Source: an archaeon (GTDB lineage Archaea > EX4484-52 > B79-G9). From it: a DNA stretch of 3,308 nucleotides. The stretch is taken from the NCBI GenBank assembly GCA_043813875.1, contig JBDRKP010000045.1, forward strand, positions 1 to 3,308, given 5' to 3'. Position numbers and translations under genes: made by a program. This document shows positions 1,442-3,308 of the stretch, piece after piece. The notes below the pieces were generated by a model that was not told where the DNA came from, made no database searches, and saw nothing but the letters and a program-made list of their open reading frames with translations. Within the stretch, counting starts at the first letter, position 1, and the number at the start of each line of letters is the position of its first letter.

Positions 1442-1469
1442 CAATAAGCCAAATATGGAGGAAAATAAC

Positions 1470-1598
1470 ATGAGTAAGAAAATCACAAAAGAAAAAAATA
1501 AACATGATCTTTTCGAGGGTCATGAAGCCAGGAAAATTGATTTTTCACGGGAATTAGAGAACAAATTGCTTGAGCAAAAGCTCAGGCAAAGAAAATGA
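1470..1598 (+). CDS. Small basic hypothetical protein (42 aa)
   Basis: MSKKITKEKNKHDLFEGHEARKIDFSRELENKLLEQKLRQRK*. Strong SD GGAGG at 1457-1461. Its stop abuts the next leader at 1599. Not in the ORF track. Confidence 0.7.
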   Translation: MSKKITKEKNKHDLFEGHEARKIDFSRELENKLLEQKLRQRK

Positions 1599-1614
1599 AT
1601 GGAGGAAAAATAAA

Positions 1615-1806
1615 ATGAAATGTATTTATTGCGACAAAAGCGCAACACATGTACGGGGGAGCGAAACCGCGACAGGCTCCCGCCCCGTCTGCAAAACACA
1701 TGCGCGGATGTACAATATAAAAACACCCATTATTTTTGAACAAATAATGGGAGATGTGGTAGTAACGAGGGAAATGAAAGAATGGATTAGAATAAGGGGG
1801 AAATAA
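1615..1806 (+). CDS. Small zinc-finger protein, CxxC...CxxH (63 aa)
   Basis: MKCIYCDKSATHVRGSETATGSRPVCKTHARMYNIKTPIIFEQIMGDVVVTREMKEWIRIRGK*. SD GGAGG at 1601-1605 supports ATG 1615 rather than the track's start at 1570. Confidence 0.75.
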   Translation: MKCIYCDKSATHVRGSETATGSRPVCKTHARMYNIKTPIIFEQIMGDVVVTREMKEWIRIRGK

Positions 1807-1807
1807 C

Positions 1808-1936
1808 ATGAATGATATAGATGGAATATGTCCCGAATGTCATGATGAAAAGCCTTCATTGATATATGACGAATATCGGGATGAATACATTTGTAATACA
1901 TGCGGGTTGATTATCAGAGGAAATTACTTTGAATAA
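1808..1936 (+). CDS. Stand-alone TFIIB/TFB-type zinc-ribbon protein (42 aa)
   Basis: MNDIDGICPECHDEKPSLIYDEYRDEYICNTCGLIIRGNYFE*. The pattern CPEC-x-LIYD-xx-R-x-E-x-IC-xx-CGLII matches the N-terminal zinc ribbon of archaeal TFB. SD GGGGG at 1796-1800. Not in the ORF track. Confidence 0.8.
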   Translation: MNDIDGICPECHDEKPSLIYDEYRDEYICNTCGLIIRGNYFE

Positions 1937-1979
1937 TCATAGCTGTTTTGCTTATAAAGGATAAGTAATAAAAAACAGC

Positions 1980-2130
1980 ATGAGTAAGAACTTTTGCGAA
2001 CAAAGAGGATATCGTAAAGTTGTGTACTGTACAAAACTGTATGGTATGCAGTAACGTGGAACAATGCCGACAGGATGGTATGTTCAGCAAAGAACAAATA
2101 GAGTTTCTTATTAAAGAAGGGAGACTCTAA
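1980..2130 (+). CDS. Small Cys-rich ORF with uncertain start, possibly frameshifted
   Basis: ATG 1980 gives only 24 aa (MSKNFCEQRGYRKVVYCTKLYGMQ*, stop 2052-2054). The overlapping +1 frame is open from 1984 to 2130 (VRTFANKEDIVKLCTVQNCMVCSNVEQCRQDGMFSKEQIEFLIKEGRL*), with possible starts at TTG 2020 (GAGGA at 2005-2009) or ATG 2041. Confidence 0.4.
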
Positions 2131-2159
2131 TAAAAAATAAATAATGGAGGAACAATAAA

Positions 2160-2252
2160 ATGACACCGAGCAACAATCGCACGCTCGATATTTATTTCGA
2201 TATGATGCACATTTCTGTGCACGCATTATTTTTTGCATATGACTTAGCCTAA
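2160..2252 (+). CDS. Very small hypothetical peptide (30 aa)
   Basis: MTPSNNRTLDIYFDMMHISVHALFFAYDLA*. Preceded by a consensus leader with SD GGAGG at 2146-2150. The stop falls just before the next leader. Confidence 0.5.
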   Translation: MTPSNNRTLDIYFDMMHISVHALFFAYDLA

Positions 2253-2275
2253 ACTGAACATGGAGGAAAACAAAT

Positions 2276-2560
2276 ATGAATAATAAAAAAATGATAATCG
2301 ACGGTCAAGAAATGCAGACCATAGAAAAGCCAATTCGTTGCACAAGAGCGGCTGATGGATGGTGTCAGAAGCTCTCGAAGAAAACACATTTCACAAAGGG
2401 AATATGTGAAGATGGATCCATGGTCGTGGGATCATCATGTCATGACGGCCGCCGTATGTGCGGCTATATCTACAGATATGACCAATGGAAGCAAGACATT
2501 CTTCCCTTGCTAATTGAATCGAACCGTGTCGTGTATGGGGGGGGGGTTAATGCCCTATGA
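2276..2560 (+). CDS. Hypothetical Cys-containing protein (94 aa)
   Basis: ORF in the track, with consensus leader and SD GGAGG at 2262-2266. It has five Cys residues and no family that I recognise. Confidence 0.75.
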   Translation: MNNKKMIIDGQEMQTIEKPIRCTRAADGWCQKLSKKTHFTKGICEDGSMVVGSSCHDGRRMCGYIYRYDQWKQDILPLLIESNRVVYGGGVNAL

Positions 2561-2711: not shown

Positions 2712-3308
2712 ATGACCATTCATTTTTCCGAACTTGACAAATACGGGCAGCACATCACATCTTTACAGCATGAACCTATGAAAATCACTGCATCCCTGAC
2801 AAGTCCTTATGTCAGTACAGATTACATCTTTCTCGATGCTCTAATCAGCAGCGCGGTCTGGCAGGATGTGATGGGGGAACAGGCGTTTAACATCCCTGAG
2901 AATAAATCAGATGTTTTCTATATTCCGCTGCCCATTAAACAAATCGGTACAAAAGAACCGTTCTATGCCGCATCAATTTGCTTCCCGAAGCAGGCTGTAG
3001 AGGGAACGGCGCGGTGGCGCAAGCAGACAGATATTGAAAGTAAAAAGAAAATCCGCATTGGCTCAGGAGAGTACAAACGGTACGATATGCCGATGCCGTA
3101 CACAAGCGCGGAAGAAATCATATTTTATGCGAATGGGAATAAAGAAGAAATCGAAAGGCTCTTACAATATATTCCAGGGATTGGTAAGAAAAGAACGCAG
3201 GGATATGGCAATGTTCGAAAATGGCAGGTTGAGTCATCGGAACATGATTATAGCGTAGTCAAGGATGGCATACCAATGCGTCCGATTCCTGTATCTGAGG
3301 CTGCGCAA
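2712..3308 (+). CDS. csf3: Type IV CRISPR-associated Cas5-family protein Csf3 (3'-truncated by window)
   Basis: Open to the window end (199 codons): MTIHFSELDKYGQHITSLQHEPMKITASLTSP...IFLDALI...PLPI...FYAAS...WRKQ...GSGEYKRYDMP...IIFYANGNKEEIERLLQYIPGIGKKRTQGYGNVRKWQVE...MRPIP. The Gly-rich loop IGKKRxxGYGxV and the MRPIP motif fit Csf3. SD GGAG at 2703-2706. Missed by the ORF track because it has no stop in the window. Confidence 0.85.
   Translation, partial: MTIHFSELDKYGQHITSLQHEPMKITASLTSPYVSTDYIFLDALISSAVWQDVMGEQAFNIPENKSDVFYIPLPIKQIGTKEPFYAASICFPKQAVEGTARWRKQTDIESKKKIRIGSGEYKRYDMPMPYTSAEEIIFYANGNKEEIERLLQYIPGIGKKRTQGYGNVRKWQVESSEHDYSVVKDGIPMRPIPVSEAAQ

Follow-up and report, generated by a model that had tools for sequence, protein, structure and literature searches.

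What is the role of a short sequence that recurs in front of unrelated small genes, between the effector genes csf2 and csf3 of an archaeal type IV-B CRISPR-Cas operon? The window considered here is the entire contig C45, 3,308 bp long, of the assembly G000 (1.64 Mb in 90 contigs, 43.8% GC), which is archaeal (TFB gene at 383.5 bits) and 91.5% complete. On its + strand, to which all features described below belong unless otherwise stated, the gene order is the end of csf1 (2-157), a cas11-like gene (157-540), csf2 (543-1376), a series of small open reading frames (ORFs) occupying 1,335 bp (1377-2711) and the start of csf3 (2712-3308). The original prediction had seen in the small ORFs an array-like architecture, with five copies of a repeated leader whose simplest reading was an optimised ribosome-binding site; for ALTERNATIVES, the two alternatives weighed were RNA handles and recombination junctions. 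On the sequence evidence, we consider it very probable that the repeat is a Shine-Dalgarno (SD) leader, one for each of five small genes, in a lineage-specific polycistronic block within the csf2-csf3 islet of the type IV-B operon.

Recurrence of the leader in the window

The 11-mer ATGGAGGAAAA occurs exactly at 1455, 1599 and 2260, and with one mismatch at 2144 (ATGGAGGAACA); the second and fourth copies have 26 of 31 nucleotides (nt) in common. Four of the five copies first counted are thus near-identical, whereas the fifth, placed at 1794, is only a degenerate form, with the core GGGGG (1796-1800) and a spacer plus start, GGGAAATAACATGA (1798-1811), of whose 14 positions 13 agree with copy 1. 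The core is missing from a sixth, partial copy at 1972-1990, which is identical to 1462-1480 at 17 of 19 positions. In particular, copy 1 (1455-1472) reads ATGGAGGAAAATAAC followed by ATG, with the core GGAGG at 1457-1461 and the start at 1470; copy 2 (1599-1617; core 1601-1605, start 1615) stands directly behind the stop of the small gene s1 (TGA, 1596-1598); the degenerate copy 3 (1792-1810; start 1808) lies inside the end of s2 (stop 1804-1806); copy 4 spans 2144-2162 (core 2146-2150, start 2160) and copy 5 spans 2260-2278 (core 2262-2266, start 2276).

With up to two mismatches allowed, ATGGAGGAAAA gives seven matches in the window against 2.48 expected, a number reached by 2 of 200 shuffles, and three of the seven (832, 1050 and 2871) fall inside csf2 or csf3 and are not leaders. 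The exact 11-mer occurs five times in the 1.64-Mb assembly, three times in this 3.3-kb contig. As had been noticed originally, the flanking cas genes do not share the extended motif and present only shorter SD-like cores (CAGGAGAC in cas11, CAGGAGGTT in csf2 and ACGGAGCC in csf3). Likewise, the units between the copies are indeed unrelated: the leaders alone recur as DNA inside the block, and BLASTP of the small proteins against each other found no pair at an E value below 1. The motif counts, the rarity and the unrelated units therefore indicate that the observation is real and not a product of chance.

Evidence for a Shine-Dalgarno leader

The five cores begin 12 to 14 nt 5' of the A of the start codon, with spacers of 7 to 9 nt, and all five starts read ATGA; among the assembly's ORFs of at least 150 amino acids (aa), GGAGG 5' of the first ATG peaks in the same register, at -13/-12 (11 and 11 of 50 occurrences). 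Contig C12 holds the 16S gene, which comes from the binned assembly and possibly is not that of the host; it ends in ...GGATCACCTCCT, and the predicted duplexes of the five leaders with this tail reach -9.1 to -9.3 kcal/mol. Pairing of -9 kcal/mol or stronger is found in only 8.9% of the 2,390 candidate starts of the assembly; for comparison, the values are -11.6 for csf2, -10.4 for s7, -7.1 for cas11 and -5.8 kcal/mol for csf3. Furthermore, the leaders are unstructured (minimum free energies of -0.6 to -5.8 kcal/mol, z from -1.75 to +0.62), and no Rfam family matched the window at E values up to 1.

The start following each leader opens a coding sequence, with frames that stay open for 42, 63, 42, 30 and 94 codons; given a stop probability of 0.077 per codon on this purine-rich strand, the joint chance is 4e-10. 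The genes are closely packed, with the s1 stop abutting copy 2, the s2 stop within the spacer of copy 3, stops 15 and 9 nt before the cores of copies 4 and 5, and gaps between the small genes ranging from overlap to 23 nt. Outside the assembly, 57 unrelated viral contigs of IMG/VR, many of which are redundant and most poor in GC, contain without mismatch the 19-mer ATGGAGGAAMAATAAAATG present in copies 2 and 4; an ORF of at least 30 aa (median 118 aa) begins at its ATG in 57 of 57. It follows that the 19-mer is a generic, convergently recurring strong start site. Taken together, register, pairing, open frames, lack of structure and recurrence at gene starts bear out the simplest reading, that of a ribosome-binding site, and lead to the conclusion that the repeat is an SD leader. 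The array-like look, on the other hand, did not hold as an architecture of its own: it is what a polycistronic operon produces.

Archaeal mRNAs are often polycistronic, with SD sequences complementary to the 16S 3' end (PMC7531240). With the SD sites found before internal cistrons when archaea or bacteria transcribe several genes into one mRNA, the window shares the GGAGG core, the spacer of 7 to 9 nt, the ATG, the unstructured A-rich surroundings and the presence of one site per cistron, and nothing essential differs. Compared with typical SD sites, the window has four near-identical copies within 0.8 kb; compared with the other genes of the assembly, its leaders pair through GGAGG only, without extension into the GGAGGTGA register.

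Each leader can accordingly be read as a GGAGG core (GGGGG in copy 3), an A-rich, unstructured spacer and an ATGA start, at which ribosomes would initiate through pairing with the CCUCC of the 16S 3' end, and the close packing would permit coupled re-initiation. One leader each precedes s1, s2, s3, s5 and s6, arranged head-to-tail in a single predicted polycistronic accessory operon, for which the conserved intergenic region upstream would act as promoter; the small proteins may be accessory factors, possibly with a regulatory or anti-defence role. The motif itself appears to be ordinary, namely the predicted strong ribosome-binding site of a small-gene operon.

Points against this interpretation

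Several observations weigh against reading the repeat as nothing but an SD leader, beginning with the possibly foreign 16S gene mentioned above. The single RNA library, represented by contigs only, covers the block only at 1803-1847, and no homologues were found for s1 and s5 (family libraries only) or for s6 (5.8 billion clustered proteins). Moreover, the extended pattern ATGGAGGA[AC][AC]A N3-6 ATG occurs four times in the whole assembly, always in this contig. The count across the assembly, proposed originally as a check, shows that the motif is not common there. The extended motif is rare also in 15 related loci, where GGAGGA precedes 4 of 150 crude-call ORFs, while an SD-type 5-mer precedes 46 and GGAGG 17 of the same 150; in the assembly, an SD-type 5-mer is found before 11.8% of the ORFs.

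The likeness of the copies had also been said to extend beyond the SD core. In fact, at the 13 non-core positions the four GGAGG copies show 64% identity, against a mean of 30% for the 52 GGAGG-led leaders of the assembly, and none of 20,000 random quartets of those 52 reaches this value. However, the same 13 positions are 71% A, a composition which by itself gives 55% identity, and 538 of 20,000 within-leader shuffles reach the observed identity, leaving a small positional excess. The similarity outside the core is therefore present and mostly compositional. Since the leaders are more alike than random quartets and rare elsewhere, they may have a shared history.

The leader as a source of guide-like RNA

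The repeats could also be RNA processing or loading handles, which would provide the array-less Csf complex with a guide-like RNA from its own operon. In published work, type IV-B complexes were found to assemble on RNA that is heterogeneous and not of CRISPR origin, with no RNA defined as the one that Csf3 would recognise (PMC7937560). The position of the repeats between csf2 and csf3 would suit such handles, as would the result of a crude exact-word finder, which detected no CRISPR array in the window, in the loci L001-L024 or in the assembly. Tandem repeats of 75 and 88 nt do occur in G000 (C2, 13545-13800; C42, 33461-33700), and these are not CRISPR arrays.

Nevertheless, a CRISPR array consists of near-identical repeats of 23 to 50 nt separated by regular non-coding spacers, whereas here the shared core measures 11 to 19 nt, the copy-to-copy distances are irregular (144, 195, 350 and 116 nt) and each unit is an ORF in fixed register with the motif. 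The leaders have neither a hairpin nor an Rfam match, and no cas6 was seen in the window. Further evidence comes from the close relatives, that is, the nine loci with Csf2 of at least 75% identity, in eight of which the end of csf2 is visible: csf3 follows directly in five (L005, L006, L009, L010 and L011), so that the whole islet is absent, and in the other three (L007, L008 and L012) an islet is present with other genes and without the motif. In L011, look-alike leaders are found away from the cas genes, about 3 kb downstream of csf3. The leader is therefore not tied to Csf, and its 19-mer is a plain start in unrelated viruses. For all these reasons the claim of RNA handles finds next to no credit with us.

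Some contigs of the metatranscriptome run X4 are identical to the window at 1-141, 496-663, 2542-2734 and 2901-3059, with the partial match at 1803-1847. We draw from them no conclusion on transcription or on RNA ends, because contigs do not reveal starts, ends or strand, and DNA may be present in the library.

A different function at the RNA level would be that the ATG inside the motif opens mini-ORFs, which would tune the downstream gene by termination and re-initiation. The sequence offers such mini-ORFs in copy 2 (ATG GAG GAA AAA TAA), in copy 4 (ATG GAG GAA CAA TAA) and in copy 5 (eight codons with the stop); their stop lies one base before the gene ATG in copies 2 and 4 and overlaps the start in copy 5, and the motif ATG of copy 1 is in frame with s1. 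However, copy 3 has no motif ATG, no SD-like sequence precedes the motif ATGs (pairing upstream of 1455 amounts to -2.2 kcal/mol), and AT stands before GGAGG also in 7 of the 52 GGAGG-led leaders of the assembly, which makes this mechanism highly improbable.

The leader as a recombination junction

A further possibility is that the leaders are ribosome-binding sites doubling as short homology junctions for the gain, loss or swap of cassettes, in the manner of the PeSL cassettes of T4-type phages. PeSLs, units of a promoter and a stem-loop terminator in the hyperplastic regions of these phages, have been shown to recombine with one another (Arbiol et al. 2010, PMC2839356), and they are the nearest known case of expression signals mediating shuffling. 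As with PeSLs, the region in the window is a variable part of a virus-like element, in which small genes, mostly ORFans, are separated by a short recurring expression signal and relatives differ by insertions, deletions and replacements. Unlike PeSLs, its repeat is a signal for translation and includes neither a promoter nor a hairpin: the leaders do not fold, the intergenic room is as narrow as described above, and no copy-to-copy recombinant was seen.

The comparison of breakpoints among relatives, suggested in the original prediction for micro-homology junctions, gave results on both sides. The block behaves as a replaced module, since the window can be aligned with L007, L008 and L012 through csf2 and the 80-nt intergenic region until about 1447-1455, that is, until copy 1, and the alignment resumes at the s7 ATG (2550) in L007, the sole contig spanning the islet. 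The islet genes also move: L007 has in its islet a gene of 390 aa with 61% identity to one of 410 aa that in L011 lies downstream of the operon. In addition, run X2 has loose ends at 2130 (before) and 2162 (behind), with a bin depth of 5.21 against 3.1 in the next bins, compatible with a single contig sharing leader copy 4 only, as judged from ends and depth and not from its sequence. The RNA-run contig that matches only at 1803-1847 (copy 3) has other sequence upstream, and the first leaders of the window and L011 blocks are alike through the spacer and ATGAGT in a by-eye, unscored comparison.

On the other side, none of the six listed joints coincides with a copy of the leader, and the main joints (1349/1351 to 2775) remove the islet entirely; on the right, the block is bounded by the s7 start, where no motif copy is present; and L012 has a deletion of 197 bp whose end is at a GGTGA-type site instead of the motif. 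A 33-nt A-rich match can be convergent, because the 57 viral contigs share the 19-mer, and joints at gene starts are also expected after random recombination followed by selection. The leaders differ even between homologues, being GGAGGAAAT before the 410-aa gene of L011 and of the GGTGA type before the 390-aa gene of L007, so the leader does not travel with the gene. Since these homologues stand in different places with different leaders, genes of the accessory module move, and the style of the leader follows the module and not the gene or Csf. The hints of a junction role are thus weak and indirect: the left edge of the block coincides with copy 1, and three loose ends lie at copy 3 or 4, against six joints that all lie elsewhere. 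We judge this role unlikely.

The genes of L011 in question are three consecutive ones (126, 55 and 410 aa), with leaders of the AGGAGGAAA(A/T) type; the genes stand behind ATAGGAGGAAAAGAAAATGA, CAAGGAGGAAAAGAATGA and ATAGGAGGAAATGAAATGA. The region containing them (12350-14249) has the layout of a second accessory operon, with a terminator-like hairpin, a TATATATA box and the palindrome GTTACTATTGTTACAATAGTAAC before the three genes, and the N terminus of the 55-aa protein (KCxxCxKxATH) resembles s2 (pairwise E value 0.004). A second repeated "leader", CTGGAGGCGCAGC-ATG in L010 and L011, was also considered; where the similarity is long, it represents the shared 3' end of upstream genes and is therefore not comparable. 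In L010, a repeat of about 35 nt (ACAGCGAAGGAGATWCTGGAGGCGCAGCA-ATGA) at 1000-1036 and 2778-2816 is the common 3' end of two different upstream genes and overlaps the next start.

The islet between csf2 and csf3

With the leaders read as ribosome-binding sites, the question becomes what they serve. In the window, csf2 and csf3 are separated by an islet of about 1.3 kb, and the leaders are contained in its variable block of about 1.1 kb (approximately 1448-2549). Upstream of the block, the stretch 1393-1439 has the RATACY motif at 1393, 1403, 1413 and 1423 on the + strand and at 1434 on the - strand, together with TTTAAATA at 1409-1416, which we take to be TATA-like. The four + strand sites are exactly 10 nt apart, and 5 of the 10 RATACY matches of the window fall within these 47 nt. 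The stretch is conserved in all the islet-bearing relatives (L007, L008 and L012), and we infer that it is an archaeal-type promoter with operator sites, possibly for s7.

In place of s1-s6, the islet of L007 contains genes of 106/111, 390 and 56 aa, none of them with the motif. Islet-less and window forms coexist in the same groundwater runs, as the main joints mentioned above were found in three DNA runs, and contigs of run X1 identical to the window cover 1223-2588. Two differences at the borders of the islet could also be noticed. In the window, csf3 opens with ~22 codons (MTIHFSELDKYGQHITSLQHEPM, 2712-2775) unlike those of all close relatives, the islet-bearing L007 included, which have MIHFKELDDYG..., and the C-terminal residues of Csf2 are LEAIV or LETIV in islet-bearing forms versus LEGI or LEGV in islet-less forms.

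It is possible to hypothesize that the islet is a self-regulated site for accessory or counter-defence cassettes, in which a RATACY-operator promoter drives exchangeable small genes, s7 is the regulator leading into csf3, and the leaders double as swap homologies between co-infecting relatives. We regard this hypothesis as quite unlikely; if true, the leaders would be the translation-signal counterpart of the T4 PeSLs.

Anti-CRISPR (acr-aca) operons of phages and plasmids have a promoter with repeated sites, small variable genes and a small conserved 3' gene that possibly binds DNA. The architecture of the islet resembles them, with a DNA-binding fold matched only weakly in s7, and no Acr or Aca homology was found. 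As in integron cassette arrays, small unrelated ORFs follow one another in one orientation, behind one promoter and with a recurring separator. Unlike in integrons, no inverted repeat is present between the genes and the gaps do not fold; since these range from overlap to 23 nt, attC hairpins, which measure tens of nt, would not fit, and no integrase is encoded in the 3.3-kb contig.

The small genes

The first gene, s1 (1470-1598), is a Lys/Glu-rich ORF of 42 aa, or 47 aa if read from the ATG at 1455, open in frame and without a family match. It is followed by s2 (1615-1806), a 63-aa Cys/His protein with two homologues of the same length, P0003 and P0004 (69% and 61% identity), retrieved from 1.84 billion representatives; scanning IMG/VR with the s2 alignment gave nothing, and among the 42 genomes of the phylum only G000 itself was recovered. 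The third gene, s3 (1808-1936), codes for a 42-aa TFIIB-type zinc ribbon (PF08271, E value 7.3e-7, 29.1 bits against a cut-off of 29), which also matches phrog_17221 (E value 3.7e-6). The PHROGs matches, limited to s3 (a phage/virus family) and the 106-aa gene of L007, are to families of unknown function only.

Directly 3' of s3, the stretch 1937-1983 forms a stable hairpin (-14.5 kcal/mol, z -3.46), with a stability reached by 0 of 200 shuffles. The hairpin masks the ATG at 1980 and is preceded by no leader copy. The surroundings of the masked ATG (1972-1990) are those which, without GGAGG, repeat the spacer and start of s1. Such a hairpin may act as a terminator or attenuator, or may mark a cassette start that has decayed, and the ORFs behind it (1980-2054 and 2020-2130) have no support.

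Further downstream, s5 (2160-2252) is a 30-aa open frame without a family match, and s6 (2276-2560) is a Cys-rich ORF of 94 aa, for which the clustered proteins returned nothing but s6 itself and the ESM Atlas no usable lead. It ends in a run of ten G (2536-2545), which doubles as the SD-like stretch of s7 and is a possible slippage-prone site; an RNA-run contig begins at 2542. The last gene of the islet, s7 (2550-2687, 45 aa), is conserved, with 82-84% identity to the L007 gene and five further close relatives. Its resemblance to AbrB/SpoVT proteins comes from uniformly weak matches (Pfam, E value 0.027; NCBIfam, 0.0052; SpoVT in the PDB, 0.27), and the AlphaFold2 model, a single helix with a pLDDT of 69.7, did not confirm the swapped-hairpin beta-barrel of that fold. 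A scan with s7 gave one real relative, L083, which neighbours a ParB-like gene and has no cas genes around it, plus a doubtful match.

The type IV-B operon

The presence of csf1, cas11, csf2 and csf3 in one operon places the locus in type IV-B. The contig begins inside csf1, a large-subunit-like gene whose 3' end (2-157) is 98% identical over 51 aa to the end of a 237-aa Csf1-like ORF of L010; CxxC...CxxC motifs are present in the full-length relative of L001. The cas11-like small subunit (157-540, 127 aa) lies between csf1 and csf2 as in the relatives (98% identity to L005, 45-62% elsewhere); it matched no family of Pfam or NCBIfam, and its name is based on the predicted operon position. The Cas7-like csf2 (543-1376, 277 aa) matches TIGR03115 (cas7_csf2) with an E value of 3e-18 and 66 bits, below the 130-bit cut-off, and PF03787 (RAMPs) with 26 bits, above the cut-off, and has relatives of 96 to 33% identity. 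The Cas5-like csf3 (2712-3308), inside which the contig stops, matches TIGR03116 (cas5_csf3) with an E value of 4.3e-18 and 65.7 bits, below the 140-bit cut-off, and is 92% identical to Csf3 of L010. Despite the NCBIfam scores below cut-off, the assignment of csf2 and csf3 holds because gene order and relatives agree.

Loci of type IV-B with csf1-cas11-csf2-csf3 and a cysH-like gene were first reported in archaeal viruses, the "Fuxiviridae", in 2023 (bioRxiv 10.1101/2023.08.24.554615). The flanking genes of the window and their order are the same, and its relatives have the cysH-like gene next to csf3: although the window contig ends in csf3, PF01507 is found directly after csf3 in L010 and one ORF further in L011, and the cysH-like protein of L010 matches directly after csf3 in L001, L004, L005 and L006. 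Different from the type IV-B relatives in which csf2 and csf3 overlap or abut, the window has between them an islet with its own promoter-like region.

Relatives and viral context

Relatives of Csf2 were found in 2 IMG/VR contigs and 20 metagenome contigs, the proteins of L005 and L011 being 96% and 75% identical, respectively, to that of the window. In the distant relatives (56-61% identity), csf1-cas11-csf2-csf3 is followed by the cysH-like gene, with csf2 and csf3 overlapping or abutting. Two viral records contain distant relatives: one has a terminase, the other is 66 kb long with terminal repeats, and the HK97 capsid family was detected in neither. Two scans of the genome collection gave no relative of Csf2, and the phylum-wide search recovered it in 1 of 42 genomes, G000 itself. 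The absence from the other genomes of the phylum fits a mobile element binned with G000, and the element is probably a virus of an archaeon. A scan of IMG/VR with the 390/410-aa protein found nothing.

The csf2-csf3 junction is not the only one occupied by additional genes. A gene for an HNH/NUMOD3 endonuclease lies between csf1 and cas11 in L005 (819-1961) and between cas11 and csf2 in L013 (942-1775), with PF07460 E values of 2.5e-26 and 8.9e-18, respectively; in L006, the 3' end of such a gene (2-127) precedes csf2, probably representing a cas11-csf2 insertion. These genes look like free-standing homing endonucleases inside the cas operon. The flanks of L010 and L011 contain genes for Mom-like, MCM helicase, ParB-N, phosphoribosyltransferase and ARPP-1 proteins and a second PAPS-reductase/DUF3440 gene, a combination suggestive of DNA-modification genes grouped next to those of type IV-B.

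Implications for the type IV-B family

Since the motif is ordinary, the array-like look of the locus should not be taken as a hidden source of RNA for the array-less Csf complex. The modestly interesting part is the place of the operon, a variable accessory islet that splits the effector genes of a type IV-B system probably carried by a virus; we found no description of inserts inside type IV-B operons in the literature consulted, of which no systematic search was made. In this groundwater operon family, the junctions between cas genes take up foreign DNA, with the islet at csf2-csf3 and HNH/NUMOD3 genes at csf1-cas11 or cas11-csf2, and the insert-bearing and insert-less variants present in the same samples constitute a natural comparison set. 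Because the function of type IV-B systems is unknown, it is reasonable to regard the small proteins, predicted to be co-transcribed from within the effector operon, as candidate modulators of the complex.

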